64,000 bases of DNA from Botryllus schlosseri (taxonomy: Eukaryota). Below, in pieces: positions 3,820-64,000 of the stretch. The translations under genes and the position numbers were made by a program. The stretch's first letter is position 1, and the number at the start of each line of letters is the position of its first letter. The notes beneath the pieces were generated by a model that made no database searches, was not told the DNA's origin, and saw only the letters and a list, made by a program, of their open reading frames with translations. The stretch is taken from positions 41,170,001-41,234,000 of the forward strand of contig CM119371.1 of NCBI GenBank assembly GCA_051294905.1, given 5' to 3'.

Positions 3820-4300
3820 TGATGACTCAACTTGACCCGAGTCATTTTCTCAAATACGGAGATGACTCGACTTGGAGTCGAGTGATTGCGCATGACTCGA
3901 ACCAAGTCATATGACCCGAGCCTCGGACGGCCAAGGCCGACATTGCATTGTAATTTCGAAGAATAGTCAAGTAACCACACTATTGGGATTTCGTCTATTG
4001 GCACTGGCACTTGAAAATGCGACCAGAAACTGCTAAAAGTGAGGAAAATTAGTAGGCCCTATATTATAAATGCGAACCATTCGATATCACCACATAAAGT
4101 TATAAAAAGTGGGTTTAACAAGACTTAAACTGGAACCCGAGCAGTCAACACAATGACTTGGACTCGAGTCATAATAGCAGATCTTGGACTCTGCTCGCTG
4201 ATTTGGACTCAGACTTGAGTCGGTTGTGAATTGATAATGACTCAACTTGACTCGAGTCAAAACTATAAAAGTGGAGCTTTGCGACTTGTTTGCAACCTTG
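3820..4300 (+). mobile_element. Degenerate copy of the GACTCGAGTC-rich MITE family (best copy 25233-25864)
   Basis: Long colinear similarity to 25400-25860 (e.g. CTTGAAAATGCGACCAGAAACTGCTAAAAGTGA). Confidence 0.75.
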
Positions 4301-4476: not shown

Positions 4477-6024
4477 TCACAATGGAGTCCCTTCGTATAT
4501 GTGAATTTTGGATTCCTTCACAGTGACAACGTGACTGATTTTAAAGTGTCTTTTCAATTTGGCGACAAACTTCTCCTCTCTGGAATACCTCATTTTAGCC
4601 GACAATATTAAAGATGGACGATTTGCGGTCGTATTTTTACTATAATCAGACAGAACAGATGAGTGAGTCTTGCATCTGCATAAATAACATATCGTGTCCA
4701 ACAAATCGTCGAAAGTATCTTCGATGTACACTATATCCGCACCGATTACGAAATCGTAATCGTTAGGGTTGTAAAGATGATGTTTTTCTCCCCATTTCAG
4801 CTCTTGCACGACAGGCTGGTTTGTATCGTTTTCGGCAAAATTCATGCAGACATTTCGCGATAAAAACGGTAGAAATTCACACAAGTCCGTAACGGTAACT
4901 TTGGCTCCGAGTTTAGAACATGCTATCCCGACCAGACCAGTGCCAGCTCCCAGCTCCAACACACGTGCTCCTTTCAAATTTTTATTCGCAACGACGTAAT
5001 TTGTGAGCTCGATTGCCTGAAAAAAAAAGGAATGCTAAAGAGAGAGATTACCGAACTGTTTCGAAATACAGTAGCAATGAATAGGGTTTGGAAAAATGAT
5101 TGGAGTAGTGAGGGATGATTTGTTTGAGAACCAGTACTGAAATTTTACACTGCTTACCAGGGATGCAATGACTCGAGTCATGGTTTTTGGGTTACCTGAC
5201 TCGAGTCGTTTTTTCAGAAGCGTAAAATGACTCGACTCAGTCAATTTTAGTATTGATTCGACTTGTATTCGAGTCATTGTGTATAACTATGGATAACTAA
5301 CCTACGGATAGATGCGCATCACGTGATTCACGGCCCAGTGAATCACGTCAGTGAATCACGACAGTCGCAGTGTTGTTGTGGCCTTCATAGCATGTAACGG
5401 CAACGTAGATGACGACCCGAGCGCTCAAATTTATTAACGTTGATATTATCCGAAAGCTCCAGTCGCGCTGATTCTGACAATATACATTAAATTTTCATCA
5501 AGGCAACGGAACCACCCCGAAATAGCTTTCAAAGTCTGAAAATCGGCATTGTTCTAAACAATCGCAACGACGCAGCACAATGACCCTACCAATGGTTCTT
5601 GCGTGGTTGCGATTGCGGTTGACTAAGTAAACTAAGTAAACTTGATTCCCGAAATACCCGTCAATTTGTCCCATGTTTCATATAATTTGTGGTCTTTTTT
5701 AGTAAGTTTAGCTAAAAATGAGGACAAATTGTAAAAAACTAGGTCATTTGAGCTAAGGGAGGAAACATCTTCAAAATGGTCGATGTAAGGTAACCCTAAT
5801 TTACAGCAGCAATAATAACAACTTACCGCTTCCCAAACGACAGCTGACACGCCTTGGCCATCCCAATTCTGCTCGATCACAATTTCATCAGCAATACCTT
5901 CGAAGCGAAACGTACGCTTTTTTTCAGTGAAGGACGGAAACAGATTGATTTGCGAGACGTCATAAGGCACTAAAGCCCAGCTTTGTTCATTTTCTTCACT
6001 TTTGCTCCTATTGTGCGCCGACAT
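4477..6024 (-). CDS. METTL21A: METTL21-family protein-lysine methyltransferase, two exons: 5827-6024 and 4477-5016 (245 aa)
   Basis: Exon 1 ends SAVVWEA at donor GCG|GTAAGT; exon 2 starts after T-tract CAG with AIELTNY...VLELGAGTGLVGI (SAM motif I), VTD, ELKWG, FVIGADIVY; phase-0 join is in frame. Exact paralog (A vs others) less certain. Confidence 0.9.
5291..5630 (+). mobile_element. Interspersed repeat in the METTL21 intron; related copies ~7020-7380 and ~30927-32010
   Basis: Shared start ATAACTAACCTACGGATAGATG and body (GATGACGACCCGAGCGCTCAAATT...AAATCGGCATTGTTCTAAACAAT). Confidence 0.7.
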
Positions 6025-7900: not shown

Positions 7901-8314
7901 TTATCTTTTCGAACGAGATTGTATCGGAACAGGCTTTTCCAATTCCTTCACGTATGTCGCTTCCCAGTTCTGTCCATCGTAAGTCTCAATGGTGATACTT
8001 CGGACTGTATCACCGTCCAAACAATCGGGGTTCACCCCATATCCATCAGGATTGGACCTCGGTCGGTAAAAGCTTTGTACTCCGCAAATCTTACAGAATT
8101 GGTGTTTCGCCTTATGTGAGTTGAAGGTGTATGTGGTTAATGCGTCCTGCCCTTGCAACAAGGTGAAGTCGCTTTCCGGCACCACGAAATGGATATTGTG
8201 CTTCTTCTTGCAAATACTGCAGTTGCAGTCGTAAACAACCAAGTTTTCAGCGGCCTGAACCTCAAATTTTACTGCGCCACAGTGGCAGCTTCCTTTGTGC
8301 GTGACGAGAGACAT
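7901..8314 (-). CDS. CENPV: CENP-V / GFA (Mss4-like zinc-binding) family protein, about 137 aa in one exon
   Basis: HKGSCHCGAVKF, DCNCSIC, YTFNSHKAKHQFCKICGVQSFYRPRSNPDGYGVN, YDGQNWE motifs; acceptor TTTTGTTTACAG just upstream (exon start 8328), so an upstream exon or leader may exist. Confidence 0.9.
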   Translation of the reverse strand: MSLVTHKGSCHCGAVKFEVQAAENLVVYDCNCSICKKKHNIHFVVPESDFTLLQGQDALTTYTFNSHKAKHQFCKICGVQSFYRPRSNPDGYGVNPDCLDGDTVRSITIETYDGQNWEATYVKELEKPVPIQSRSKR

Positions 8315-8344
8315 CTCATTAAGTTTTTCTGTAAACAAAAGACA

Positions 8345-9731
8345 GCTGAGATGACTCATTCCATTATAATTTAGCAAATTTTCTGACCGTTGTGATGTAT
8401 GCCCTCAGAATTGTCCAATATTTACAAATGTTTTCTGTTAATTCTGGCTACATTTAAAAAAAATTAAATTGTAAAATTTCCAGCGGTTTAAAAGATAATG
8501 CGATTAGAAATTCTCATGTCACTAGGTGGCGCTGCATGCAAAAATCTTCAAAATCCATATTTTTTGCTGTAATGATGGTGGAGAATCAACTAAAATGTCT
8601 AATTCAGGGCTGGCCAACCTTTTCAGCCAACGGGCCACATTCGATTGACGAATTAGTGAGCGGGCCACTGGCCGCGCGAAGCGCGAACATTTTTTGAAGT
8701 TCATAGGTCATTAATATTGTTATTTGACTATATTGCGGGCCTGCTGTTTATCGCTGGGCTAATTTTGCGAGGACTGGGCTATTCGGCGCATGGACATATC
8801 GATATCGAAAGATGCGACCAACATATGCGTCAATCATTTCGTGCCTAGGTTGCATAGTCGACGGTCTTACTGCGAGCAAAAACGTCATGTCACATATGTT
8901 GAACGACACTTTGTCTCGTAATCGCGAATGTAGTTAGACTCAATCTGATACATTAGGTGTTCTTCCATTTTCACAAAAGGGCAACAATATTAAAAACGAA
9001 TGACAACATGTTGCACCAAGCTTGAGATAATTTTTACCTTTGATAAATCTACCGCAAATTATTCTGCTTTATTGTAGTGTACGAAGATATACCAATATGT
9101 GAATGGCTGATGGATCTGTCAATGCGTAGGAACTGATATTTTAGTCATCACATCTCAAGTGTTGCGACCAGACTAATCAAATTTTTGGTTGGCCTTGCAA
9201 GTTCACAATCTGTGCAATCCATTTTTGATGATATTAGAAATTTCGGAAATGACCTCGCGGGCCACTCAAAACCTTCCCGCGGGCCACATGTGGCCCGCGG
9301 GCCACGGGTTGGCCGGCCCTGGTCTAATTACACAATTTTGAGGCCAAGGAATTGAAAAAAATCAACTTTTTCGCTCTAAACTCAAAGGAAAAAAAGTTAC
9401 GGACGAAACAAAATTGGGGGGAGCGGACTTGAAAATCCATGTAGGATTCCATTTACGCAAAAAAATTTGCAAAATGTAGGCTACTTTGAAACAGTATGAT
9501 TGATAAAAAATAGGATTTTCAAATTAATCTCTATTCCAGAAGGAAATCACGAAAAAATTTCTCTTTGTATTCAGTAATTGGTTATAATAGTAGATACGAT
9601 GAGCAGCATTTCAATTTAATATTTTTTAATGTAGCCAGAATTAAAAAAAAAAACATTTGTTAATATTAGACAGTTCTGAGGGTATGCATTACAGCCCTTG
9701 TTAAGTTGTAATGGAATTAGCCAGATGTCAG
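8345..9731. mobile_element. Old inverted-repeat element hosting the 8605-9321 MITE
   Basis: ~8345-8475 is an imperfect reverse complement of ~9610-9731 (TAATTCTGGCTACATT / AATGTAGCCAGAATTA). Confidence 0.6.
8605..9321. mobile_element. hAT-type MITE, 717 bp; same family as the ZNF-disrupting element
   Basis: TIRs CAGGGCTGGCCAAC / GTTGGCCGGCCCTG; perfect TSD GTCTAATT. Confidence 0.95.
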
Positions 9732-14246: not shown

Positions 14247-15780
14247 CAGAGTTGGATCAATTGTAATTTGTAATTGAGCTGAATGTAATGATTACATTTT
14301 TTCATGTAATTGTAATTGTAATTGTAATTGAAGCATTTCTATTTTGTGTAATTGTGATTGTAATTTGATCAAAATTTTGCTCAATTACAATCTGAATTAC
14401 ATTTTCATGGAAACCTGACAATCACAACATACAATAATCAATTAATCAATCATTTATTCGTCACACCAGTGAAAATCCGGTACGAACCAGGATGATGACG
14501 AGGGGCCTTAGTAAACAGTCACCACTTGTAATAATTAGCCTATTTACATCGGTGTTCTATGCGTGCTGGGTTATAACTAGATAATTCAGTCACGTTAAAC
14601 TATTTCCCATACTTCAGTAGCAACAGAAAACTTTGTGAATTACAATATACGCTAAACCAGTGGTTCTCAAACTGGGGGCGCGACGCTCCAGTGAACTAAA
14701 TTTTTTTCCGCGCTTTGCCCGATTCACCTCGGTTTTATGGTTATTGCTCGGTGTATAGTCTGAATTTCGTATTGGAGAATTCTCTCATCAACAGTCATAA
14801 CCTTCCATACCATCAAACTATATGTAAGGATTGCGAACTTTCTGGTTTCATTGTGTGCTACAGCGATAAGGGGTGCACGAAATATTAACCTTAAGGGGGG
14901 CGTGTCTAAAAAAGTTAGAGGACCAGTGGGCTAAACTAAGTCTTAATATTTCAAAAATGGATGAACAGCAAATAAACTCTTCTGAAACCCGTGCTGAACC
15001 ATTTTCTACATCATGGTCAAAGTTTTTTAAATCTCTGACCACTACCGAGCCTTGTTGCAACAATTGCAAAAAAATTCAAGTTTCCAACTAAGGCTTCATC
15101 AAATTTGATCACGCATTTGTAGAGATGTTATCCCAATGTTACCTTCAATCTTGGCCAAATTTACTGGGGCCAGAAACTTTTCGCACCCTAATGTTCATCA
15201 AATGCAATCTAACAGTTTCCGAGCAAGTGAAAATGTAATTGCGAACCAAAATATTGTAATTCTTAGTTATAAGGAGGTTCTTTCCTTTTGCATTTATTTT
15301 ACGCACCGTATCGGTGTCTTCCTTAAAACTGACGCGTTACCAATTACATCTCATTGACTGTCCTGTAGCCTATTCGCTGTTAGTCGCTCAAACCTTTGGT
15401 TCTTAACAGTCGCTTGAAACATTTTTCTGTGCTTGTAGTTTTCAGTACTCATGATTAGGAATAGTTCGAATATGTTCGAGTTTTTTTTATTTAAGGGGTA
15501 TTTTACATATAATGAATGAAACATGAATAGCTTGAGATTGTTGCTAATTACGTCGCTTCGGTTGACAAAGAACACCTCTTTACTGAATCAATTACCTGTT
15601 TAAAAGTAATTGTAATTGTAATTATAATTGTACTTAATTGCATGTTTAACAGTAATTATAATTGTAATTTGATATTTTTAGCATTGAGTAATTGTAATTG
15701 TAATGTGATTGAAACACGCAAAGAAGTAATTGTAATTGTAATTGTAATTGAATTAAAATATTGTAATTGATCCAACTCTG
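14247..15780 (+). mobile_element. hAT-type element with (GTAATT)n subterminal arrays, copy 1
   Basis: TIRs CAGAGTTGGATCAATT / AATTGATCCAACTCTG; perfect TSD ATCCCGAT; nested MITE 14658-14928. Confidence 0.95.
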
Positions 15781-16252
15781 ATCCCGATAGTCTTCAAGTC
15801 TCATGCGGTAGAGATATTTATAGTTTTGATGTAGTCTATCCTTGCGACCATGCAATAGACATGACCTAATCCAGCGCGTGGCTCAAACCTTGACGTGGTG
15901 TGCTGACTCATGTCAGCGGATAGCATTCCAGATTAGAGTGGGTCCATTCAGCATGCAGCAGTTGTATCGCTATTCTATTATTTCACGCTACATGCAATAC
16001 ATCTTCACTAAGAAGGCATGAGCTATAGTTAGCTGGTTCACTTCTTTTATAATTTGACAATGTATCATAAAAGAAGGCTCCGGAGCTAGAGCAATTCAGC
16101 ATCCCGGTCAGCTTCAAAGCCGTGTTATAGTCTCACACCTACACATCACTACCCCGTTCCATATGTCGCACTAATATCCAGTTGCTAACAATACATGCGA
16201 AATGAGGGTGTGTGGGGGCGGAGCAGTTCAGCATTCCGGCCAGCTTCAAAGC

Positions 16253-17913
16253 CAGAGGTGGCCAGTAGCGAAGTACTTCTACTTACTCAAGTAGAACTGA
16301 TTTTCGCTACTTATACTTCTACTTCGTAATATTTTGTGATCTACTTACTTACTTTTCACTATTTTCAGTTTGTCAAGTAGAAGTATTATATCTTCCAATT
16401 AGGAAGATAGCCCGAGGAATTTCGGGGCATGTTTTCACGGAGTATCAACATTTAATTTTCATAAAAGTTGAGTAAAGCCCAGAATTTCCGTCGCGCCTGG
16501 CGCGCATTGGATACAGAGTTACCAGTATGATTTCACGACGGTATCGATGAATATAGTTTAGGTAGCGGGTTGGCGTGGATCCGTTCACATAGGGATATCT
16601 AGAAGTAGATATCTAGATATTCCCGCGTTCGCACCACATTGTCGCCCTTCGCCTATATGAAATAATTCATCACAGTATATATGGCTCATCATAGCGTTTG
16701 AAACTGATGTTTCGCAATCTAGCATTTACTTGTCATATCGTAATCTAGCATGTCCATGGCGCGTCCTAACCTGGAAAAGTGGATTCTGACTTTTTCCAGC
16801 TTTACACCTGTTTTAGCATGCCACCATTGAAACTGCATGTCTGGACTAAAGGCATGAAAAACGTGTTCCGCTTTTAGAAGTAGTATTTATGTTTCATTTT
16901 CAATTCCCAGTATCATATACTTTGAGTTATAATTAATATCAGTTCTTTTGTGCAAGTGTAGTAATGCCTTTAATTTCCGGAAATAAAGCTACACAATATG
17001 TCATTTTTACGGTCCACCATATTTTTTATTAGCGTTTACTAATCGCGCAAAGTGTTTACACCTAGGGTTACCATACGTCCTCTTTTAAGAGGATTTGTCC
17101 TCTTTTTTGACTTTTTTGAAAGTGTCCTCGGAGGACGCCCTTTTGTCCTCTCTTTTGAGATTTTGTCCTCTTTTTTGAAAGTTTAGGTAACATTTAGATC
17201 AAAATGCGAGGGATATGCCGTAAATTAGCACAGATGTGACGTCCGGCGGGTATTTCGGAGGGAAAAACGGTGATTTGATCTCTGAGCAAGAAGTTCACCT
17301 TTTTTTTAGTCAACCACCAAGCAATGTGGAGTGGAAAACGGTATTTTGAACAGTCAACCGATCACAAAGTGGGAAAATTCACCGATTTTTGAGAATAATT
17401 CTCCGGTTTTGCAAGTCTCAAATTTCTGAAAAAGTGTCCTCGTTTTAGTTTTCCAAAATATGGTAAGCCTACTACACCGTATCCTATACAACTTCTCCGT
17501 ATTGCTCTGGGGATGGCGCCATACCATGCTATTTTCCAAAACGCGCTGTTCGAGAAAACAAAGGATAAGTATTGCATTTCCATATCAATCCTATCATTTT
17601 CATCCCATGATGCGGAAGAATGCTTATGCTATCGCAAATTGGATACCTGCTGGTATATGCATCAATATGAATCAAGCTCGTCACCTCTCGCAGCTTAATT
17701 TGCACCTTTTTGCAATCCATGTGAACGAATTAGGATCGTTTTCACAACTACTTACTTACTTGAGTACTTTTAAAGTCAGTCAATTCTACTTCTACTTTAA
17801 GTAGTTTTAGGGTGCTTATGGAAGAAGTACTTCTACTCGTACTTGGGTAGATTTTTTCGTCGCTTCTTCTACTACAACTTGAGTAGCTTTCTTGACTACT
17901 TTGGTCACCTCTG
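16253..17913. mobile_element. hAT-type element with TACTT-rich subterminal arrays; nested MITE 17063-17471
   Basis: TIRs CAGAGGTGGCCA / TGGTCACCTCTG; TSD TTCAAAGC/CTCAAAGC; interrupts the second unit of a ~130-bp tandem duplication (16090-16252, resumes 17922-18030). Confidence 0.85.
17063..17471. mobile_element. TAGGGTTACCATA-family MITE; other copies ~40001-40330, 53122-53386, 54603-55017, ~61793-62120
   Basis: TIRs TAGGGTTACCATA / TATGGTAAGCCTA, repeated TGTCCTCTTTT motifs; 54603 copy has TSD CTATATCG/CTATATGG. Confidence 0.85.
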
Positions 17914-18269
17914 CTCAAAGCCGTGTTATAGTGTCACATAGGCCTACACATAACTACCTCCGTTTCATATGTCGCACTAATATCAAGTTGATAACGACAC
18001 ATGCGAAAGGGGTTGTGCGGGCGGAGCCCCCCCAGAAGCTGCGGAGACATACTTATCGAATCGAGTCATTTTTTCATTCACCACCGAGTCGAGTTTGAGT
18101 CCAAGTCAGCTAGTAGAGGGCCGAGTCCGAGTCATAGCGTTTTGACTCTGGTGCGAGTCCAAGTCATTATAATCACTGTTCAGTTTTCAGCTTAGTCGGG
18201 TTGGTTCAACTCTGCTCGAGTGATATAGAATGGCTCGCATTCATAATATAGTAATTTTTCTGTCTTAAC

Positions 18270-19769
18270 CAGAGTTGGATCAATTACAATATTTTAATTC
18301 AATTAAAATTACAATTACCTCCTTGCATGTTTCAATTACATTACAATTACAATTACTCAATGCTAATAATATCAAATTACAATTACAATAACTGTTAAAC
18401 AGGTATTTGATTCAGTAAAGAGGTGTTCTTTGACAAACGTAGCGACGTAAATAGCAACAATCTCAAGCTATTAATGTTTCATTCATGATATGTAGAATAC
18501 CCATAAATTTAAAAAAAAACACTTGAACGTATTCGAACTATTCATAATCATGAGTACTGAAAAGCACAGAAAAATGTTTCAAGCGACTGTTAACAACCGA
18601 AGGTTTGAGCGACTAACAGCGAATAGGCTACACTCTACAGGACATGAGTCAATGAAATGTAATTGGTAAAGCGTCAGTGATAAAGATGATACCGATAAGG
18701 CGCGTAAAATTTAAATAACTGCAAAAGGAAATAACCTCCTGATAACTAAGAATTACAATATTTTGGTTCGCATTGACATTTTCACTTGCTCGGAAACTGT
18801 TAGATTCAAGTTTCTGGCCCCAGTAAATTTGGCCAAGATTGGAGATGAGATTGGGATAACATCTCTACAAATGCGTGATCATACTGATCAAGTATGAAGA
18901 AGCCTTGGTTGGAAACTTGAAATTCTTTTTGCAATTGTTGCAACAAGCCTCGGTACTGGTCAGAGATTTAAAAAAAAACTTTGACCGTGGTGTAGAAAAT
19001 GGTTTAGCACAGGTTTCAGAAGAGTTTAGTTGCTGTTCATCAATTTTTGTAATATTAGGATTCAGTTCAGCCACTGGTTCCCTAACTTTTTTAGATGCGC
19101 CCGCCTCTATGACAGGGAAATGTTTCGTGCCCCCCTTATCGTCACAGCACACAATGAAACCAGAATGTTAGCAATCCCTAAATATGGTTTGATTGTATGG
19201 AAGGTTATGACTGTTGATGAGAGAATTCTCAAATACGAAATTCAGACTATACGCCGAACAATAACTATAGAACGGAGGTGAATCGGGCCACGCGGGGAAA
19301 AGATTTCAGTTCACTGGAGCGTCGCGCACCGTTTAAATGCTTTAACGCCGCCCAAGGGGGCACGCTCCCAGATTGAGAACCACTGGTTTAGCCTATATTG
19401 TAATTCACAAAGTTTTCTGTTGCCACTGAAGTATGGGAAACAGTTAAGCGTGACTGAATTATATAGTTATAACGCAGCACGCATAGAACACCTATGTAAA
19501 TACGCTAATTATTACAGGTGTTGACTGTTCACTAAGGCCTTAAGGCCCCTCGTAGTCATCCTGGTCCGTACCGGATTTTTACTGGTGCGACGAATAAATG
19601 ATTGAATAATTGATTATTTTATGTTGTGATTGTCAGGTTCCCATAAAAATGTAATTGAAATTGTAATTGAGCAAAATTTTTATGAAATTACAATTATAAT
19701 TAGGCCTACATGAAAAAATGTAATGAATTACATTCAGGTCAATTACAAATTACAATTGACCCAACTCTG
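18270..19769 (-). mobile_element. (GTAATT)n hAT-type element, copy 2, inverted relative to copy 1
   Basis: Same TIRs; TSD GTCTTAAC/GTTTTAAC; reverse complement of 14247-15780 including the nested MITE; inserted in a reversed GACTCGAGTC-family element (~18055-19945). Confidence 0.95.
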
Positions 19770-21271: not shown

Positions 21272-23234
21272 TCAATCAGTCTTACCAGCCAAATGAATCA
21301 TCATGTGCCTTTTCAAGTCACCCTTCTGGGTAAATTTCTTGCCACAAATATTGCATTCATAGTTTCTTATGCCAGCATGAGATTCCATATGGTGTGTAAG
21401 GGAACTGCCATAGGCAAGTTTCTTACCACAGAGTTCACAATTGCGGTTTTTGACGCCAGTATGTACAGCCATATGCATCTTCAAGTATGATTTCAATTTA
21501 AATTTATCATGACAAATGTCACATGTAAAATCTTTAACAGAGCTATGGAGTTTTATATGAGTATTAAGATGAACCTTTTGAGTAAATTCCTTCCCGCAAA
21601 TCTCGCATGCATAGTTTTTGACATTTGCATGTACAATATTCATATGGTGCTTAACGGATTTTTTCTGCATCAATTCCTTCCCACAGATATCACACTTATA
21701 ATATTTGGGCCTATCGGCAGCATGCACATGCATATGGTTCTTCAAGCCCGACTTCAGAGGAAACTTTTTCTCACAGATATCACATTTGTAATTTTCTGTG
21801 TCAGTAGGTCTATGTCAGGGCTGGCCAACCTTTTCAGCCAAAGGGCCACATTTGATTGACGAACTAATGCGCGGGCCACCAGCCGCGCGAAGCGCGAAAT
21901 TTTTTTGAAGTTCATAGGTCAATAATATTGAAGCTTGACTATCTTGCGGGCCTGATGTATTTCGCTGGGCTAAATTTGCTAGGACTGGGCTACGTGGTGC
22001 CTGGACATATCGATATCGAAAGCTGCGACCAACATGCGCCAATTGGTTGGTTGGTTTTGAGGTATTTATGGTGTTTGACGACTACTATGGTCATTTACAC
22101 CAGATCGATATTCTTTATTTATATTCCGTAACTGCCGACTTTCAGCACGGCCCACTTCCAGGCTTTTTGTAAAACACCGCTTACGCGGATGAGGTGGCCA
22201 GGAGTCGCCTAGAAAAACCTCCAACACTTGGATATAGGAAATGCCTGAATCATTTTATGCCTAGGTTTCATAGTCGACGGTCTTACTGCGAGCGCAAACG
22301 TAAGGTCGTATATGTTGGACGACACTTTGTCTCGTAATCGCGAATATAGTTAGACTCAATCTGATACATTAGGAGTTCTTTCAGCTTCACAAAGGGGCAA
22401 CAATATCAAAAACAAGAAATCAAGTGACACCATGTTGCGCGAAGCTTGTCCAAAAATTTTACATCTGATAAACCCATCCCAAATCATTCTGCTTTATTGT
22501 AGTGTACGAATATCTACCAATATGTGACTGGCTGATGGATCTGCCAAAGCGCCGGAACTGATATTTTAGTCATCACATCTCAAGTGTCAGACACTAATCA
22601 AATTTTTGTTTGGCCTTGCAAGTTTACAATCTGTGCAATACATTTTGGTGATATTAGAAACTTCTGAAATTACCTCGCGGGCCACTCAAAACGTTCTCGC
22701 GGGCCACATGTGGCCCGCGGGCCACGGGTTGGCCGGCCCTGGTCTATGTTGAAGCATGTGTGTCTTGAAACAGTATTTCCTTGAAAACTCCATCCCACAA
22801 ACTTCGCACTGAAGATCTTTGATGCCGGAATGTACAATATCCATATGCCTCCGCAAGCTTGGCTTATGAGCATATTCGTTTCCGCAAACATCACATTTAT
22901 GATGTATGGCGCGAACATGAGTTTTCATGTGAGTGACGACGCCCTTGCGAGTAAACTTCTTTCCACAAATCTCACATCCATGATTTCGGATAGTAGCAGC
23001 AGCATGATTCGCTTCATGTTCCTTCAAGACCCATTCTCGTTTAAAGCCTTTCCCACAAGTACCACATTTATGTGTTTTTCGCCCCGTATGGCAAATCATG
23101 TGAATATCGCGGTTACCCTTTTGCGTGAAAGTCTTCCCACAAATTTCGCATTCATGATTTTTGACACCATAATGAATATTCATATGGTGCTTGATGGAGT
23201 TCGTCACTAATTCTTTGCCACATATCTCGCACAT
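21272..23234 (-). pseudogene. C2H2 zinc-finger gene copy 1 (12 fingers), interrupted between fingers 6 and 7 by a MITE; as it stands encodes a truncated 182-aa, 6-finger ORF
   Basis: ORFs 22686-23234 and 21272-21745; removing 21816-22741 plus one TSD restores ...HMLQHRPTDTENYKC..., as in the paralog at 62967-63995. Confidence 0.9.
21816..22741. mobile_element. hAT-type MITE (926 bp) inserted in ZNF copy 1; contains a SINE fragment ~22044-22245
   Basis: TIRs as in 8605-9321; perfect TSD GTCTATGT (21808-21815, 22742-22749); single GTCTATGT at the paralogous site near 63503. Confidence 0.97.
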
Positions 23235-23717
23235 TTCGTTATAACTTCGAACAATAGTAAGTTACCAAATTATTGGTATTCAGTCTGTCGGTACTGGTGT
23301 TTCTAAAATATAGGATCAGAAACAGTGTAAAGCAGGGAAAATTACTGTATTATGAATGCGAAGCATTGAGTATCACCCAGTTTACAAGTCGAGTCAATAT
23401 TCACTGGAGCCGAGTTTAATCCATTTTCCATAATTCTGGAAAGAACTCAAGTCGAGTACCATAATTACAATCCTGCCATGACGGCAATTGAAACAAATCT
23501 TACATAAAACCATACATGCAGCAATTGCCAGTTGAGCTCCCCACAGGGCCATAATCCAAAAGCACACACTATATTAGAGATTAGCCTTATTTAGGTTTAC
23601 CGGGTTTTGATATCCGGAAGTGAGGAACCTTTTCAAAAAATCTGAAAGCTGGTGATTTTGGAAACTCTTTTTTACCCGTAGCAGTATTGCGTTGACTTAA
23701 AAAGGTCACCGCTCAGG

Positions 23718-25007
23718 AGGGTGTCTTTGATTTGTACATGTCGCCAATGTCACCAATGTCGACGTCTATCTATTTTGTCAATGTCACCCATGTCGCCAAT
23801 GTCGACGTCTATCAATTTTGTCAATGTCACCAATGTCGACTTCTATCTATTTTGTCAATGTCACCAATATCGCCAATGTCACCAATGTCGGCAATGTCAC
23901 CAATGTCGGCAATGTCACCAATGTCGCCAATGCCACCAATGTCGGCTATGTCACCAATGCCGACAATGCCAACATTGCCGACGATGCCGAAACTAGGATA
24001 CTGTAATGACTCGAGTAAGGATTTTTGGTGACTCGACTTGAATCAATTTTGGTATTGACTTGACCTGCACTCGGCTACTCAAGCACTTCGACGTTTATTC
24101 AATTCAACAGGCCTAATAATGTAAATCATATCATTGGAGTTATAAATAATTTGCGTTTGTGGCAAATCTTCAGGTCTGGTCGAAATCGAAAATAATCGCA
24201 ATGTCTGTTTTGCATGCGTAGGCCTCCTCTATCTTGCAGGTGGTCTGTCTGTACCAGATGAGTCCGTAAGTTATCCCATGCGGTCTGGAGTCATGCGCAA
24301 TGACTCAAGTACAGTACAACGAGCCTACTTTTTGCCAGCGTACCTCACGTCCAGTCGTGTATTTTCATTGCGAATCTTACAGTGGAATGTATAAAGACTT
24401 CGACGTTTATTCAATTCAACAGGCCTAATAATGTAAATAATATGATTAGTTATATTATAATAACATTGATAATGACATTTATTCAATTCAACATAGGCCT
24501 AATAATGTAAATAATATGATTAGTTATATGATAATAACATTGATAATGACATTTATTCAATTCAACGTAGGCCTAATAATGTGAATAATATGATTAGTTA
24601 TATGATAATAACATTGATAATGACATTTATTCAATTCAACGTAGGATTAATAATGTAAATAATATGATTAGTTATAAATAATTTGCGTTTGTGGCCATGC
24701 AATCTTCAGGTCTTCCCGTCAAGAATCGCGTAGTATGTAGCGAGATAGTCGAAGTACTTGAGTAGCTGAGTGCAGGTCAAGTCAATACCAAGATTGATTC
24801 AAGTCGTGTCGAGTCACCAAAAATCCTTACTCGAGTCATTACAGTATCCTAGTTTCGGCCCCCGAGCGGCATCGTCGGCAATGTCGGCATTGTCGGCATT
24901 GGTGACATAGCCGACATTGGTGACATTGCCGACGTTGGCGACATTGACAAAATAGATAGACGTCGACATCGGCGACATTGACGACATGTACAAATCAAAG
25001 ACACCCC
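23718..25007. mobile_element. Foldback-type element with long modular inverted arms and internal tandem repeats
   Basis: Ends GGGTGTCTTTGATTTGTACATGTC / GACATGTACAAATCAAAGACACCC; TSD CGCTCAGG (8-9 bp); 9-bp (ATGTCRCCA)n arrays in both arms. Confidence 0.85.
24406..24675. repeat. 72-74-bp tandem repeat, about 3.6 units
   Basis: Units beginning TTTATTCAATTCAAC at 24406, 24478, 24552, 24626. Confidence 0.9.
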
Positions 25008-25232: not shown

Positions 25233-25864
25233 CAGGGTTGTAATGATTTAAGTCATCACTCGACTCGAGTCACGATTTTCGGATGATTCGACTCGAGTCA
25301 TTTTTTCAAAATACAAAAATGACTCGACTCGAGTCTATCTGTGTGTTGACTTGACTTGGACTCGAGTCATTTGCTCAAAATACAAAAATGACTCGACTCG
25401 AGTCTATCTGTGTGTTGACTTGACTTGGACTCGAGTCATTGCGCATGACTCGAAGCAAGTCATTGACTCGAGATTCAGATGGCCAAGACTGACATTTCAT
25501 TGTAATTTCGAAGCCAACACAGTATTGGGATTTCGTTTGTTGGTACTGGTGCTTGAAAATGCGACCAGAAACTGCTAAAAGTGATGAAAATTGATATATT
25601 ATAAATTCGAACCATTCAATATCACCAAACATAGTTGAAAAAGTGGGTTAAGGAAGACTTTAATTGGAAACTGAGCAGTCAACACAATGACTTGGACTCG
25701 GACTCGAGTCATAATACGATGACTCGGACTCGATCCTCTGTTGGCTGACTTGGACTCAGACTTGACTCGGTGGGAATTGAAAATGACTCCACTTGACTCG
25801 AGTCAAAAATATATAAGTGAGATTGACTTGTGACTCGGAGCCTTGTGACTTGGTTACAACCCTG
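25233..25864. mobile_element. GACTCGAGTC-rich MITE
   Basis: TIRs CAGGGTTGTAA / TTACAACCCTG; TSD GATATGCC/GATATCCC; internal direct duplication near 25300-25440. Confidence 0.85.
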
Positions 25865-28362: not shown

Positions 28363-28711
28363 GATCACGGTGAACATTGTTCGATATATGCCCTATTCTA
28401 CTGCCCTTAACCGACGAGTATCGACTCAACGGGCAATCATCACTCTTTAGCATGCAAACTCGAGCATTGTCAGCTCTCCTGTATAGTACCATGACCAATC
28501 AACAGTTGAATTCCTTGTCGTGGCTATTTGGTCTCCAACCCCAGAAAAACTCTCAACCATTTGTAGACGGATAACCAAACGGCGTACCGAGCAGGCCGCA
28601 AGAGAGGTGGAACTTGCAATGCAATACTATAAGCCGCGGGACAGGTAGAAGTTCTAATACTAAAGCGCGGACCAAACCTAAACGATGGAAAGCAGAACAG
28701 TGGATTGTGGA

Positions 28712-30184
28712 TTGGGTTGTTCAGATTTGAAAAATTGTCAGGAAATTTCGATGCTTGTGACCCAAATGATGGTTTAGTACATAAAAACACTTATATGATC
28801 AATTTTGGTCATCTTCGTCGTGATCTTCTATCCCCGAAAGGCCCCCAAAGATGCACGGGGCAATTCTCCTTACTGCTTGATCTGTAGTGTTGACCATGTC
28901 ACCGGTTTATAGCTTTGGTGACGTTATCATTCGAAAACGGCCATGCAGAGACGAGATATTGCAATAAAATAGATATGTTTTCAAAATGTTATTTAAATGC
29001 AGTCCTGTAAAGGCCACTTGCATCTCAGTTTTGCTCAGCAAAACCTGTCTGTCATGCTCATGGGAATCATGTATTGGCTGCACCATAGACATCGGTTTGA
29101 TTTGGATCGTACATTGAAGAAGCGCCGTTGGGTTGTAATTCGTGAACGAATACTGATATTCCCAACTAGTTTTCAGCCATAAGGTATTATTCAAAGGTAT
29201 GTAATGTCAGTAATACTCTTCTCAACTTCAAATCATCTGTAAAATACCGAGTTATCTTATTTTATGGTAGACGGCAATTTAGTTGAAGAAAAATGCCTGA
29301 AACAATGCATCAACACAATGTTCAGTGCTTGCCATATAGGTATTATTGTCATATTCCATACGTTGGCAACCTCTTCAACAGTTTGAAGGACACAGTCCTG
29401 CGTTGTGGTAGTTCCGGAGCAATTTTCTTTCAGATATGGCGGATATAGTAGAACCTCATCTAGAGTCGGTTACTTGGAGTGACTAATGCACTCAGATGAA
29501 TATCCGACCGAATAGTGACCAGAATATCAGACCAAATAGTGGGCAGACCTGAATATTGTTTATGGTTGATCCGCAAAACCCATATCCGCTTTGTTTCAGA
29601 CATTCTTCTGCAACTAAATTGCAGTCTACCATAAAATAAGATAACTCGGTATTTTACAGATGATTTGAAGTTTAGAAAAGTATTACTGACATTACATACC
29701 TTTGAATAATATCTTATGGCTGAAAACTAGCTGGGAATATCAGTATTTGTTCACGAATTGCAACCCAACGGCGCTTCTCCAATGTTCGATCGAAATCAAA
29801 CCGATGTCTATGGTGCAACCAATACATGATTCCCATGAGCATGATAGACAGGTTGTACAGAGTGAAATCGATAAGCATGTGGCCTCAATAGGACTGCATT
29901 CAAGTACAATTTTGAAAACATGACTTTTTTATTGCAATATATTATCTCTATACGGCCGTTTTCAACTGATAACGTCACAAAAGCTATAAACCGGTGTCGT
30001 GGTCAACATTACATATCCAGCAGTAAGGAGAATTGCCCCATGGATCTTTGGGGGGTTTTCGGGGATTGAAGATCATGATGAAGATGACCAAAATTGCTCA
30101 TAAAAGTGTTTTTATGTACTAAACCGTCATTTTGGTCACAAGCATTGAAGTTTCCTGACAATTTTTCAAATCTGAACAACCCTA
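28712..30184. mobile_element. Foldback element with ~600-bp inverted arms
   Basis: 28712-29310 is the reverse complement of ~29590-30184 (mirrored ORFs 28907-29194 and 29702-29923); flanked by TGTGGA direct repeat. Confidence 0.9.
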
Positions 30185-31258
30185 TGTGGAACTTGTATAC
30201 TAAACAACGGAACTATGAACAGACCGGACCAAGACGCAAAAGAGCGGACCGAGAAACATACGGAACTCGCAATATTAAACGGCGAAATTGGGGACAACCA
30301 CATAATGCACAGTGAAAACGTCGGCCTGTGTAGCGACTACAAGGCTAATACGTAACGATAGATTACTCGTGCACAAAATGAACTGTGCATCAACACTTAA
30401 CAGAGTTTAAAAGAACAATACTAGTCAGCCGTCTAGTTTACCGGACCTCAACCTGACATATCGATCTCGCCTTCAGAGACATGCCACCTCTGTTTGTCGC
30501 CTGTCCGCTTATATCGATCTTCTTCTGCTTTTCATTCAGTGTGGATGCCTCCTTTTTTACATCATCTAGGCCAGGTGGGTGTCTGATTTGGAAGACTACT
30601 CCAAAAGTCGTTTCGGCAACTTCCTATCTTTCATTGTATCGCAGTCTTTGTGGTATATTGAAATGATGAAATTGTTACGTTTTTCGTGTGTATGAATTCA
30701 AATCACATGTATCAGCATCGGTATCAGTTTATTATTATTTTCATCATTTTCAAACATCAAATTTAATGAGTGTGTATCTTGTGTGTTTCCTCCAGGGACC
30801 TCTTGAGACTAGGTTAGGGTTCCGGGGAATACCGTTATGAACCATTGTACAAAGGAAATTGCACTCATTTTGGCGCCGTGGATATACTCAGCTATCGCAG
30901 CTCCTGCAGCTATCGCATCTATCTATAGATAACTAACCTACGGATAGATGGGCAGCACGAGAGTCACGGTCGAGTGATGCGACAACGGCAGATTTGTTGT
31001 CGCTTCATAGCATGAAACGGGAGCGTAATTGCTAATCCCATAGATGACGACCCGAGCGCTCAAATTAAATAAAGTTGATATTATTTGAAAGCTACAGTCG
31101 CGCTGATTCTGATTATATACATTAAATTTTCATCAAGGCAATGGAACCACCCCGAAATAGCCTTCAAAATATGAAAATCCGCATTGTTCTAAAACAATTG
31201 CAACGGCGCAGCACAATGGCCATAACTACGGTCCGTTCGTGGTTGCGATTGTTTAGAA

Positions 31259-34803: not shown

Positions 34804-35239
34804 ATACCTTGTAAAATGAGACCGTAGCATTTGGCATTTCGTGTGGCAATTGACTTTTGTGTGGAAAATTGTGTTCGTTTTAGAACTTATCCGAAACTTT
34901 TATTCCGCCATAGATTGTATATGATAAAACGATATCGGAATTGATCCTAGGAGAATTCCAAAGCAACTCACCACAAAGGAGGATTTAAAGAAGTTTGATG
35001 GAAAATTGAATGAAAGCAAAAGCAAGAGATGTGGTATGTTGAATCTGTTTTGGTATTTTTAAATAGGCCTACTTTGTTGTGCCGATAGCAGACGGTATAT
35101 ATAAACGTAAGATGTGGAAGCTATCAAGGTGTTTTTAGAAATTCAGTCAGTCAAAGTGGACGATCGTATTGCTTGGATTATATTTAGGCTTATTTTAGCA
35201 TCTTTAAATGCAACTCTAAACGTGGACGGTCATGAACAG

Positions 35240-35903
35240 TAGGGCTCTTCAAAAATGACTTTTTTTCTCAAATCGTACTGGCTACTTGATAAAATTGTTA
35301 GGTTACCTAATTTAAGCCTACAAACAAAATATGGTTCATCCAGCCAGTATCCGCTTTGCTACAAGAGAAGAAAGTTCCTATTTATTATATAAAAATGAAT
35401 AATAAAAAATTTGAAGATTTTCTGTTCACCCCATGAAAGTGTTAGGCTGTCTATAGAAACGATGCTCACCAAATTTGGTTCAATTCCAACCAGTGGAAGC
35501 GGAGTTATTGCTGTCGAAAAATTTGGATTTTAATAAAATAGTACTTACGGTGAGCACAACTTTAATAAGTAAACAAAGAATCGGTCACCGTAAATACTAT
35601 TTTATTCAAATCCAAATTTTTCGACGGCTATATCTCCGCTTCCACTGGTTGGAATTGAACCAAATTTGGTGAGCATCGTTTCTATAGACAGCCTAACACT
35701 TTCATGGGGTGAACAGAAAATTTTCAAATTTTTATTACCTATTCATTTTTATGTAATAAATAGAAACTTTCTTCTCCTGTAGCAAAGCGGTTACTGGCTG
35801 GAATTGAACCAAATTTTGTGTTTAGGCTTAAATTAGGTAACCTAACAATTTTATCAAGTAGCCAGAACGATTTGAGAAAAAAAGTCATATTTTAAGAGCC
35901 CTA
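35240..35903. mobile_element. Near-perfect palindromic foldback element; half copy at 44362-44716
   Basis: Arms 35240-35553 and 35585-35903, 31-bp spacer; ends TAGGGCTCTT / AAGAGCCCTA. Confidence 0.9.
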
Positions 35904-38900
35904 ATGTCCATGTCAGGGAAACGTTTTAGGGTAGGCCTACTCATATGTCTCGCAGCGTTCTCTACATAATTGTCAATTGCGATACAAACTGTTTGCTTGT
36001 ATTGGTAAAGCCATCCAACTTCGAATTGTAAAATGTTGGGAGTCTTGATATCAAATTTTTGAAAGGTGCACTTTGAGAAGATTTTGGAATCTGTCAAATT
36101 ATACAAAAATTTAGCAAATTCTTTGACATATTTCATCTATTTGGGACTCGATCAACGTAAAAGAATTAGTAATCATTTTATACAATATATTGTATTTGTA
36201 GTTGAAGTATAGTAATAATTCTTATGGTTACCGCACTTGTAACGATTCACGGCCATAACTGGAATAATTAGAATGATGTAACTTTCAAATTGTCATGCAT
36301 TTTGCAACAACATTGTTCTCAATTTTCAAGGTGCTGACCATTCGAGGAAGAATCACCCACCGGGAATTCACGATCCGTAAACGCGGCCAACTGTTTCTCT
36401 CCTCAAGCGGAAGCGACAGAGAAGAGGAACGAAGAGAAAAAAGGAGCAGAAATAGCAAGAGTGTGACAAGTCGCGTCCGTTCGCTTTAATGCGTATTTCC
36501 ATCCGCGAAGTAGTAGGTGGGAAAACTAATGGGCGTTTGGTTAGCGCTTATATAAGGTTGACTCCAGCGCTGTATTTGCTAAATGTTGCTATGAAATAGG
36601 GGTGGTGTCATTCGGTATCAATATTGACTATTGAAAGACCATTTGTTAGTGGTCATGGATTTGTTCGGCCAGTATGCAGTAATTTCTGATGGTCACTTCC
36701 TGGGCTTCTGTTCTCTAACCCCTCATGATTGTTATTCTGCTTCTAGTAAGACTGTCGATTCTAATGTTTATCGTATCATTTGTCGGAGGTTTCGCTCGCT
36801 TTATTTACAACGTTTTGCTCTCTGCTAGGTCAATTACTGGCTGAGTATCACTACAGCCTAAGAAACTGCACTAATTCTCATTTTAATGTCTTGCTGGTTA
36901 TCTTGCTGTCAATTCTAATAATTTATTAATGTATATACCAGTGCCGCCACTCAAATGTTTTGTTCTCTGTACACAATATTATTAGGTCTTCAGCTTTCCA
37001 TGCAGAGTATCATTACACTTTCTAGACTTGAGCATATATCTCTCCAACTAGCTGCCAAATAACTGATTCATTTGGATTGTTGAATTGATCATTTTGGACA
37101 GAATGTGAAGAAATTTTAGTCAAGAATTCTTTTTGTGTTAGTGGCTGTTTTCAAAGAGTGCTGAAGTAGTCATCGTTGATCTTGATAATCAAGTAGAAGT
37201 GACGATTGAAGTCAGTTCTCTAGTCATATAATATTAAAAAATATAATAATAAAACTTGAAAACTTGAGTGGAAATAGTTCAGAATCGAATCCATTTTAGT
37301 AAGTATGGGCGAAAAAAATGTAGGAGTCATTCGTTAGTCGCTACCTCTGCCATTTTCGCAGTACGAATGTCTTAGCTATCAATCATCATTTTCATTTTAT
37401 TTCTGCAGGGTGTTGAAAAGAAAAGGCCGCATGCTGGTTATTTAACTGGCTCATCAGAAGATGAAACCTGATGATAAGGACTGTTTTCACTTTCTTTCTG
37501 AAGACATTCGTTCGTTTGTTCGTTTTATTTTTTACAACGGCATTATTGCCAATTCGGTTGAAATTAAATTATCACAAATGTGATTAATATGTAGTAAATA
37601 ATGTGGTGTGTGTACGCAGCCGTGATCAGGTTAAGCCCATAGTGGTAGAAAACAGGTTATTATATCAGGATCTTCTTCTTCTAACGTAGGATCTACATTC
37701 TACTCACCATGTTTAAAGGCTGTAGCATCTGCATAATATTTACATTATTGAAGGACATGGAAAAGACGTTGAATCGAGTCGACACAAAATCCCCCTTTCT
37801 ACGACCTGCCAAGATCTAATATCTACTACATCGGCTCGACTTTTCTACATCTTTGGTCTGTACTGTGTTTGCTGGGATATGATAGGCCTATTTGGACGAC
37901 GTGGACGCGCGTGTGTTGTACTTGTGCGCTTTTGATTCCGAGGTAAAAAAGTCATTGAAATATTTGGGGCAACGACCGCAGTGGAACTGATACATAAACT
38001 TGGCGATTTCTAGTTTTCGCATATCTTCTATGTTTAGGACACCGAATCTCTTCAGCAGCGACTTGTTGGATGGACCAACAGGCTTCTATGGGGCTCTAGC
38101 TATGATACGGAGTACCTTATGTTATAGTTTTTGCAGTGGCTCGAGTGCAGTTTTATTGCCAGCCCCCCAACAAAGGATGCCATATTGTAACTTCGATTGG
38201 ATTAGGGATTTAAAGAGTATCAGAAGAACCCAGGCTGGCATGAAGCGTCCAAGGCTGTAGAACAGGCCGCAAGTCGGTGATAATTTAGGGTAGAGAGAGA
38301 CTGAATATGACTCTTCCAGGACATGTCCGAGTCCAATAAAACCCCGAGATATTTGTCATTATCTGTGTTGGAAACGGGCTGACCAGCCACGTTAACGGTT
38401 AGGTTATTTTTTTAATTTCTCATTAATATATACCTATTACCCAAGGAACAGCTCTTGGTTTCAAATAGGTTGTTGGAAATTGAGATATAGTCTTCAGGGG
38501 TAGTGATGAATATAAGTTGAGCTTAACAAGGTGTGTTGAGTCAAAAAAGTATGGGAACAATCGGTTTACCGTATTCCAAACTTAAGCATATCCATGAACA
38601 AATGCAGTGTACTCTTGAGATGGCGATTTCCCCACCTTACAGTCAAAAAACCAAAATGAAATGGAATGGAAAATTTTCTTTGTAACCAGCTTTCATATGA
38701 TACCCTACTCGCTGGAATATACTTATAAGGTTTTGCTCAATTCGCATTCTAATTTGTGTAACGCTTGACCGATTTCAGACCATCGACCAAGTTTCGCCTC
38801 AATTTAACCTTTAACACTACACCGCATGGCATTCAATACCACATGAGAATATAGACCAATATACTAGCTACTCAGAAAACCCAGTGCCAAATCTCAACTG

Positions 38901-39139: not shown

Positions 39140-41260
39140 CCTTTGTGATTTGGGGGGGGAGGGAGGTTCTGATGCTCTGTCGATTTTAACTATTAAATTT
39201 CGAAATCAGTGCGACGATATCATTCGATTAATGAGGTGATGAAATTTTCTGAATAAACTAATATCAGCAGTTATATATTCTGAGCTGTTTTTGAATTAAT
39301 GACGCTATCCTAGGTGTTGCTTGGCGTTTCTGTGCCTTACTTCTCCCTCAACACTATATTTTGGAACAATAAATGTAAGTATGTGGTTTTGGGTGTATTA
39401 ATATGTTAACTATTTAGTCATTCATGAATGTCGTGATGTTATAATCATTTACGGTTTCACAATTGCCTTTTAGTCATCCTGACTGCAGGTGGGGCACTGT
39501 GTTGTTTGACCGAACATATGAATCACGGACTGCTACTATTCACCGGCATAAGATACATATAAGTCAAAAACAACTCACGTATCACATTTATTATTAATTT
39601 ATCTTGATCAAAACATCACGAAACTGCAATACAATGACAAGTTGAGGCATGCACATTGCACACTTAATGAAAGTAATAGAAGAGAGCATAAAAAGGATAA
39701 GGGTGAAAATAAGGTGGCGCGTGTCGAGGTCGATATATTTAGACATTGGGTCTGATAATATTGAATTTCTCCATCGCAAAAGTAGCTGAAAGTACAGTGC
39801 CTCATGTAAAGAAGCCTTTGCATCAGCAGATAAGCCTAATGGATCTTCTTTCCACAAAATGTATCGCAGCGACCATATTTCATGCCTGAAATAGCTTGTC
39901 AAATTGCTATTCGGTCGACCCAACGCCTTATCGAACCCCGTCCAAGCATAGTCATAAATACGCACGTCGGTTTGAAATAGATTCCATTGCTCTCATATAG
40001 TAGGCTTTCCATATGTCCTCGTTTATAAGGATTTGTCCTCTTTTTGACTTTTGGACGCCCTTTTGTCCTCATTTTTGAAAATTTAGGTCAGATTTAGAGC
40101 AAATTGGGAGTGATATGCCGCAAATTAGCACAGAAGTGAAGCTCCGGCGGGTATTTCGGAGTGAAAAACGATGATTTCAGCTCGGAGCGAAAAGATGACC
40201 TTTTTTTTAGTTAACCGATCACAAAGTGGGAAAAATTAACCGGTTTTTGAGAATTCTACTCCGGTTTTGCAAGTTGCAAATTTCTGAAAAAGTATCCTCT
40301 TTTCAGATTTCCAAAATATGGTAAGCCGATCATATAGACACATTTAACCTAGATATAAAATACTTCGGAGCAATGAAATTCAATGCCTAAGAACGTCTAC
40401 AGCAGATAATGTAAGTCTCAACCGTCTTTAGATTTTGGAAAAGCTAAAAACTGAGCAAAATGGTAAGCAAGTAATCTCGCGTTTAGGACTGCTCGTTGTA
40501 ACCAAACCCACGGATCAGTGCCCTATTGTCATTATTGGTATGTAAACCCGTCTCTCCAAACATATTAATTTATACCCGACGCGTACATGAAAAGGAGAAT
40601 ACATAATAGGCTATAAATCCACATTCAACAGGTATTTATTTCCTGATAGGATGTGACAACGACCAAGTCACGTGTTCATAAAATCTTGACAGGTTTCATA
40701 AATGTCATTTCACAAATGAATGATACAATTCGATATGCTACAATTTTCATCATTTCAATACACTGCAAGACTGCGATACAGTGAAAGATAGAAAGGCGTC
40801 GAAACAACTCTGAGTAGTCTTTGAAATCAGACACCCACGTGGCCTAGACGATGTAAAAAGGAGGCATGCACACTGAATGACAAGTAAAAACAAGATAATA
40901 GAAAAAAACAGGTCACAAAAAAAGGTGGCATGTATCGAAAGGCGAGATCGATATGTCAGGTCGTGGACCGGTAGACTAGAGGATTAAAAGTATTTATTCA
41001 GCAGAAATTGTCAGTCTTTCAACTTGAATTCTCCATAATGCTACCATAAATAAAGCGACATACTTGACTAAATGTTTTGAAAATAAGACAGGTGGTTGGC
41101 CAGATGGGAGACTAATTTCGAGAACAGTAGCTTCCCTTCCTTCCATTACCCACAGATGATTGCTTTGAGTATATTTTTACACAAATCCCCACATCATTCA
41201 GTCATAGTAGCCAAATGAATTTTCATGTGGGTGTTGAAGTTGCTGCTTTGGGTAAATGTC
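39140..41260 (+). repeat. Segmental duplication, direct copy at 60939-63040
   Basis: About 2.1 kb nearly identical (duplicated spurious ORFs 39594-39965 / 61386-61757); covers 3' flank and last finger of ZNF copies 2 and 3. Confidence 0.95.
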
Positions 41261-63995: not shown

Positions 63996-64000
63996 TTCGT

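Follow-up and report, generated by a model that had tools for sequence, protein, structure and literature searches.

Three tandem zinc-finger genes and their surroundings

The minus strand of the window, the whole stretch of 64 kb of DNA that was analyzed, carries three tandem copies of a 12-finger C2H2 zinc-finger gene spaced 19-22 kb apart. The copies display a DNA identity of 82-96% and all lie on the same strand, as clustered recent paralogs. The features needed to follow the analysis are listed below.

21272-23237, minus strand: copy 1, 12 fingers in two parts with a MITE between them
22742-23237, minus strand: 5' part of copy 1, fingers 1-6, 96% identical to copy 3
21272-21807, minus strand: 3' part of copy 1, fingers 7-12 (the last at 21293-21355) and stop codon
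23004-23066, minus strand: finger 3 of copy 1, helix positions -1 to +7 at 23016-23039 (REWVLKEH)
41194-42282, minus strand: copy 2, intact ORF of 362 codons counted from the first in-frame ATG, short leader followed by 12 C2H2 fingers
41986-42048 and 41215-41277, minus strand: fingers 3 and 12 of copy 2
62967-63998, minus strand: copy 3, open 12-finger ORF truncated by the end of the window
63765-63827 and 62988-63050, minus strand: fingers 3 and 12 of copy 3
21816-22741, no strand assigned: hAT-type MITE of 926 bp with terminal inverted repeats, between fingers 6 and 7 of copy 1
23231-23377, no strand assigned: diverged dispersed repeat, 70-72% identical to 3940-4091 and 25523-25626, adjoining finger 1 of copy 1
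39140-41193, no strand assigned: 3' flank of copy 2, duplicated behind copy 3 at 60939-62966

Copies 2 and 3 are recognized by Pfam as arrays of C2H2 fingers with the zinc ligands present (PF00096, E 6e-51 and 1e-51, respectively), and fingers 2-3 can be aligned to solved DNA-bound arrays such as ZFP568 (5v3m). Degenerate fingers are nevertheless present: finger 1 is short, finger 2 lacks the leucine at +4 and fingers 4 and 5 contain deletions. Finger 3 is the last of a three-finger run joined by 7-residue linkers. TGxK linkers amount to 2, 3 and 1 of the 11 linkers of copies 1, 2 and 3, respectively, and the exact TGEKP linker was found in none of the three copies (11 linkers each). The overall dN/dS of fingers 1-8 ranges from 0.28 to 0.33, indicating purifying selection. 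A resemblance between fingers 8-9 (21574-21695) and fingers 1-2 (23117-23232), with a DNA identity of 71-73%, points to a putative old internal duplication of the array.

The in-frame ATG of copy 1 is located at 23234-23232, immediately ahead of finger 1. The MITE that splits this copy is bordered by a perfect target-site duplication of 8 bp (21808-21815 and 22742-22749); from this duplication and the ends of the element, we take it to be of the hAT type. A second copy of the same element is found at about 8605-9321 and lacks a nested insert of ~200 bp (22044-22240) carried by the MITE in copy 1. The target-site duplications of both elements (21808-22749 and about 8597-9329) share their first five bases and a central TA, suggesting a target preference, presumably Buster-like. 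Copy 1 is probably a pseudogene since, unless the MITE is spliced out, its product would be reduced to six fingers followed by a short MITE-derived tail.

The dispersed repeat at 23231-23377 does not resemble the leader found in copy 2. Its alignment extends over the ATG of copy 1, so that the repeat may have supplied the start codon seen in the copy-1/3 type. The junction of this repeat with finger 1 also recurs as a loose end in DNA contigs of the sequencing run X4, described further below. Repeated sequences make up about a third of the non-gene DNA of the window (19.7 kb, versus 37.1 kb of unique DNA). A large inverted repeat occupies 14247-19769, with arms of about 1.5 kb that are 79% alike and ends carrying a hexamer repeated 11 times, and more foldback-type elements lie at 23719-25006, 28711-30185 and 35231-35912.

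The ORF and 3' flank of copies 2 and 3 form a single alignment of 3.1 kb at 91% identity. A 132-codon open frame is present on the minus strand of both duplicated flanks (39594-39992 and 61386-61784); Pfam returned no match for the first of these, and its survival in both flanks may be due to chance, given their identity of 96%. Two further genes were recognized on the minus strand of the window. The first is a CENP-V-like gene with a GFA domain (7901-8404); the portion that was matched sits in a single open frame, and the best named match is from Styela clava (77%), followed by Phallusia (69%), which makes a stolidobranch ascidian the probable host. The second is represented by a lysine methyltransferase exon (Methyltransf_16, 4477-5034).

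Mosaic structure and the case of finger 12

The relationships between the three copies change along the gene. A total of 190 topology-informative sites are grouped in 56 runs (permutation p 5e-5) and all three topologies are represented: copy 2 stands apart in fingers 1-8; copy 3 does so between late finger 9 and early finger 12, and copy 1 beyond that, starting with the finger-12 helix. The central segment corresponds to the following feature.

21338-21577 (partner 41260-41499), minus strand: tract common to copies 1 and 2, running from late in finger 9 into the first part of finger 12

This tract (codons 245-324) contains 3 differences over 240 nt, including a stretch of 131 identical nt, and stops just before the helix of finger 12. 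Beyond it, the same two copies disagree at 10 of the 21 nt of the finger-12 helix and at 6 of 33 nt in the remainder of the gene. The 3' flank of copy 1 can no longer be aligned about 50 nt past the stop codon, and copies 2 and 3 remain alike for about 2 kb. The three copies are patchworks of one another, likely produced by unequal crossing-over or gene conversion: copies 1 and 3 share fingers 1-8, copies 1 and 2 the stretch between late finger 9 and early finger 12, and copies 2 and 3 everything from the helix of finger 12 to about 2 kb into the flank. The near-identity of copies 1 and 3 that the sequence-only reading had described around finger 3 is a regional property: it was confirmed for fingers 1, 2, 4, 5, 6 and 8, with 0-2 non-synonymous differences per block, but does not extend to fingers 9-12, where 31 of 115 residues are different.

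This structure bears directly on finger 12, for which divergence at the base-contacting residues had been proposed. Copy 1 indeed has the helix QKGDLKRH, and copies 2 and 3 have QSSNFNTH. However, the difference is not contact-specific: all positions from +1 to +6 differ, including the structural +4 (L/F) and +5, synonymous changes are present as well, and the helix marks the start of a tract over which copy 1 is deeply diverged from copies 2 and 3. Because the identity of copies 1 and 2 ends at this point and copies 2 and 3 share their flank, the finger-12 difference is better explained by a recombination boundary; it would be the edge of a swapped tract and require no separate contact-specific event. 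The helix is more diverged than the codons that follow (10 of 21 versus 6 of 33 nt, p 0.023), and an older helix-directed change, inseparable from the tract edge, is possible. Finger 12 thus illustrates a trap, in which a tract boundary in mosaic paralogs mimics contact-specific divergence.

Different fingers within the gene have a DNA identity of at most 73%, with a mean of 55%. These values argue against finger-to-finger homogenization of the PRDM9 type and against a donor within the window for the helix of either finger 3 or finger 12. When the other fingers of the window were considered as donors of these two helices, the best match reached 15-19 of 24 nt and the candidates were rejected.

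Helix differences and selection at finger 3

In C2H2 fingers, helix positions -1, 2, 3 and 6 are the usual DNA-reading positions. The finger-3 helices (-1 to +7) were found as originally read, namely REWVLKEH for copy 1, RKWGLKKH for copy 2 (at 41998-42021) and RGLDLKRH for copy 3. The residues of copies 1, 2 and 3 are E, K and G at +1, W, W and L at +2, V, G and D at +3, and E, K and R at +6, respectively; R at -1, L at +4 and K at +5 are constant. The proposed concentration of divergence at the contact residues of this finger holds as a clustering beyond random expectation, with two reservations: contact position -1 is invariant and +1, which is not a main contact, varies too.

Over fingers 1-8, copies 1 and 3 are separated by 14 synonymous and 18 non-synonymous differences. 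The contact codons of finger 3, four in number, account for four of the latter (4/18), or for 5/18 when +1 is included. The cluster is real, since random placement of at least 4 of 18 differences on the contact codons of any finger has a probability of 0.0015, or 0.004 when the structural C/F/L/H codons are set aside; inclusion of +1 lowers these values to 0.0002-0.0008, corrected for the choice of finger. Inside finger 3 itself, 4 of the 8 non-synonymous differences are located at contact codons (p 0.013-0.031; 0.004-0.013 with +1).

The rate of change at the contact codons of finger 3 corresponds to a dN/dS of about 4 (4 changes per 9.2 non-synonymous sites versus 14 per 129 synonymous sites). 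This excess over 1 has an uncorrected p of 0.017-0.019, is not significant after correction for 8-12 fingers and can be called suggestive. When all three copies are counted, finger 3 is the sole finger of 12 with p below 0.05 (0.027, or 0.32 after multiplication by 12); with +1 included, p is 0.0037 (0.044 after multiplication).

Nothing comparable is seen over the whole array. Variable positions represent 16 of 46 contact columns versus 84 of the 220 remaining non-structural columns (p 0.72, in a three-sequence comparison of low power), and the contact residues of fingers 2, 6 and 9 are identical in all copies. The excess at contact positions across the family by which the sequence-only reading proposed to judge itself is absent in the three copies: 20 of 127 non-synonymous changes fall on contact positions (p 0.22), and pairwise Fisher tests give p 0.10-0.49. 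The array-wide contact rate is 0.18 per non-synonymous site versus 0.39 per synonymous site, a dN about half of dS, and pairwise dN/dS at the contact codons of the whole array is 0.41-0.96. Diversifying selection on DNA specificity is consequently a fair reading for finger 3 only and is not supported for the array.

Four of 24 listed runs were mapped to positions 41860-42480 at 82% likeness. The RNA run X20 provided 12 reads (6 pairs) that match copy 3 at 25 of the 25 variant positions listed, including 8 of the 8 positions that separate copy 3 from copy 1 and the entire finger-3 helix. The copy-3 helix is therefore not an assembly error, and the copy-3 locus is transcribed, irrespective of the strand of the RNA. 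The first mate lies on the minus strand in 6 of 6 pairs (41923-42132); if the library is of the dUTP type, these reads are antisense transcripts of the zinc-finger gene. Run X16 yielded 5 RNA reads, 2 of which are at least 99% alike to copy 2, and run X18 yielded 0 reads, a result uninformative on expression. No RNA reads of X16 or X20 cover the 5' leader.

The DNA contigs of run X4 contain copy 2 with 0 differences over 41860-42480, as well as a finger 3 of the copy-3 type and a finger 1 of the copy-1 type with its flank. Over 41860-42219, the copy-1-type finger 1 and the copy-3-type finger 3 are found at single-copy depth, and a copy-1-type finger 3 is not among the matches listed; these contigs were used as evidence of presence only and this missing sequence was not counted as an absence. 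The combination could be due to a recombinant haplotype, a copy-number polymorphism or a simplification of the contigs. At the start of finger 4, the summed contig depth reaches 626, versus about 16 for a single copy; the genome must therefore contain numerous additional finger genes of more distant relationship.

We consider it somewhat probable that the helix of finger 3 has been under selection for altered DNA specificity, as its pattern of replacements suggests, with the limits that the comparison comprises three sequences, one of them a broken gene, and that +1 is as variable as +6. The backbone of finger 3 would have been homogenized between the copies and its helix repeatedly replaced, and the target of the protein would be set in part by this finger, the last of its three-finger run.

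Relaxed constraint could produce a similar picture if finger 3 were no longer needed, or if copy 1 were decaying after the MITE insertion, with neutral drift appearing targeted post hoc. We regard this as unlikely, though deserving of attention. The finger-3 block as a whole has a pN of 0.113, equal to the neutral synonymous rate (pS 0.108), and the dN/dS above 1 fails the correction for finger number; furthermore, the other 11 fingers show no contact excess, copy 1 is broken and several fingers (1, 2, 4 and 5) are degenerate. Against this reading, the changes of finger 3 are still clustered in the helix, at the p values given above. When copy 2 is taken as outgroup, 3 of the 5 helix differences (+1, +2 and +6) map to the branch leading to copy 3, an open and transcribed gene, 1 maps to that of copy 1, and 1 is unplaceable. 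In addition, R at -1 and K at +5 have stayed fixed in all three copies.

Short conversion patches from unsampled paralogs or old alleles would replace many selected substitutions at finger 3 by a few events, an explanation that we find improbable. The genes are demonstrably mosaic and the contig depth of 626 versus about 16 reveals many related finger genes as potential donors. The comparison of the three copies shows no synonymous differences across codons 55-78, a blank with a probability of 0.0006 against the copy-1/copy-2 background of 0.42 per site (longest-run p 0.051), which suggests additional short conversion around finger 3. A diverged donor should, however, have imported synonymous changes into these same codons, and the X4 contigs display two sequences of at least 82% likeness over finger 3 among the matches listed (presence only). 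Codons +1, +3 and +6 exhibit three different states in the three copies, so a single swap is insufficient as an explanation and several patches would be required.

Effector domains, predicted targets and known systems

Only finger families were detected by Pfam in copies 2 and 3. In order to cover the upstream DNA, 145 minus-strand peptides of at least 47 aa were submitted to Pfam (78 of 83 and 67 of 72, the ten omitted lying in the 3' flanks of neighbouring copies), and none scored above threshold; one sub-threshold match to a Tudor-knot was returned (E 0.003). This search covered exons of at least 47 aa in the DNA upstream of copies 1 and 2. PR/SET, SSXRD and KRAB domains had no Pfam match in copies 2 and 3 or in the upstream peptides of at least 47 aa, and the earlier statement that no KRAB-like domain is visible is upheld by the copy-2 ORF and the 145 peptides, which gave no effector match. 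A search by tblastn and sensitive blastn for upstream exons common to copies 1 and 2 returned short matches only, mostly recognizable repeats, and no collinear chain. The protein is likely finger-only, short exons aside, and the products would act as DNA-binding factors composed of fingers alone.

Searches beyond the window were directed at relatives of the gene. The 120 matches listed, out of 639 in a protein search with copy 2, are at most 41% identical, and the best 150 obtained with HMMER against 1.84 billion representatives are at most 44% identical, all of them generic arrays. None of 33 candidates qualified as a shorter protein of the family. An exact 21-nt scan of metagenome contigs gave 0 matches and a protein scan of the metagenome contig collection retrieved 1 unrelated locus (37%).

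Targets were predicted as crude six-base patterns for fingers 2-3, derived from a C2H2 recognition code; codes of this type are error-prone (PMC7293014). None of the three motifs is enriched in repeated versus unique DNA of the window (p 0.2-0.6). Of 18 motif tests on the ends of six inverted-repeat elements, 16 were negative, including those on both copies of the hAT-type MITE. The two positive tests concern the copy-1 and copy-2 motifs, which match the 14247-19769 element through its hexamer repeated 11 times. This match is a lead at most, because about 25% of arbitrary patterns score likewise: 99/384 and 97/384 arbitrary motifs of the same form (25-26%) match at least one of the six elements. 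Two three-base motifs for finger 12 were also compared between repeat and unique DNA, one being depleted and the other slightly enriched, and contain too little information for use.

These results bear on the model initially put forward, a KRAB-less arms race in which the fingers recognize subterminal motifs of the local MITEs. Throughout metazoans, binding to transposons is predicted for ZNF genes irrespective of their accessory domain (PMC10547256), and about a third of the non-gene DNA of the window is repeated. The two hexamer matches also point in this direction. We nonetheless hold the model to be very improbable: the motifs lack enrichment in repeats, most element-end tests were negative and a quarter of arbitrary motifs do as well on at least one element. 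Moreover, the published correlation concerns the copy number of retroelements, and the insertion in copy 1 is a MITE that struck the gene, not a protein that binds the MITE. The subterminal motifs are accordingly not supported as targets, with motifs that are too weak to refute the idea. By analogy, transposons are a plausible driver of the finger-3 change, and no support for a link with nearby transposons was found in the window. A more speculative version, which we would call a long shot, is that finger 3 might serve as the single specificity switch of an effector-less module chasing a DNA transposon, for instance the 14247-19769 foldback, with its backbone kept uniform by conversion between the copies, its helix rewritten by selection, and long swapped tracts reassorting the finger blocks.

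Comparison with known systems places selection at finger 3, which we favour, in a familiar setting. PRDM9 combines SET, SSXRD and KRAB domains with an array whose fingers are homogenized as a coding minisatellite. Finger 3 resembles this array, when compared between copies, by its synonymously homogeneous backbone and divergent helix; in contrast to PRDM9, no homogenization between fingers takes place within the gene and no SET, SSXRD or KRAB domain was found.

A close parallel is provided by the poly-ZF expansions described by Emerson and Thomas in 2009 (PMC2604467). That paper reports positive selection at helix positions -1, 3 and 6, along with some gene conversion, for mammals, frog and fish; two dipterans showed no such pattern. 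Clustered recent tandem C2H2 genes, helix replacements and gene conversion between paralogs are common to those expansions and to the present locus. Their selected sites are spread over many fingers, centered on -1, 3 and 6, in sets of at least 5 genes, whereas three copies, one hot finger, a fixed -1, changes at +1 and +2 and long conversion tracts are found here. Table 2 of PMC2604467 lists nine species and no tunicate.

Young KRAB clusters of the mouse expand by non-allelic recombination (PMC12575710). Tetrapod KRAB clusters, as described there, are similar to the present locus in forming transposon-rich tandem clusters with differences at fingerprint residues and pseudogenes among live copies; the locus differs by its non-tetrapod origin and in that no KRAB domain and no exact TGEKP linker were found. 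Repression of transposons by KRAB-independent families was tested in zebrafish (Wells et al. 2023, PMC10547256). FiNZ-ZNFs and other non-KRAB metazoan families share with the present genes a KRAB-independent tandem organization and variable base-contacting residues, and differ from them in that no N-terminal accessory domain was seen here. The words tunicate and Ciona are absent from the main text of PMC10547256. Among the transcription-factor families of tunicates, C2H2 genes vary most in number, with 154 in Styela clava (PMC8122590). Literature searches, over a collection largely without subscription journals, showed no study of ascidians that deals with selection on the contact residues of fingers.

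The genes behave like a young poly-ZF cluster and are neither KRAB-ZFPs nor PRDM9. This kind of evolution is already well known, with published cases of selection on contact residues in other animals, and specialists would not find it surprising; three copies, one of them broken, are too few to settle selection or to name a target. If finger 3 is selected, a tunicate case would be added to a pattern known from mammals and fish. Three natural variants that are nearly confined to +1, +2, +3 and +6 on an identical backbone would also constitute a tidy test case for asking whether effector-less zinc-finger genes of an invertebrate chordate change their targets in the way KRAB-ZFPs do.
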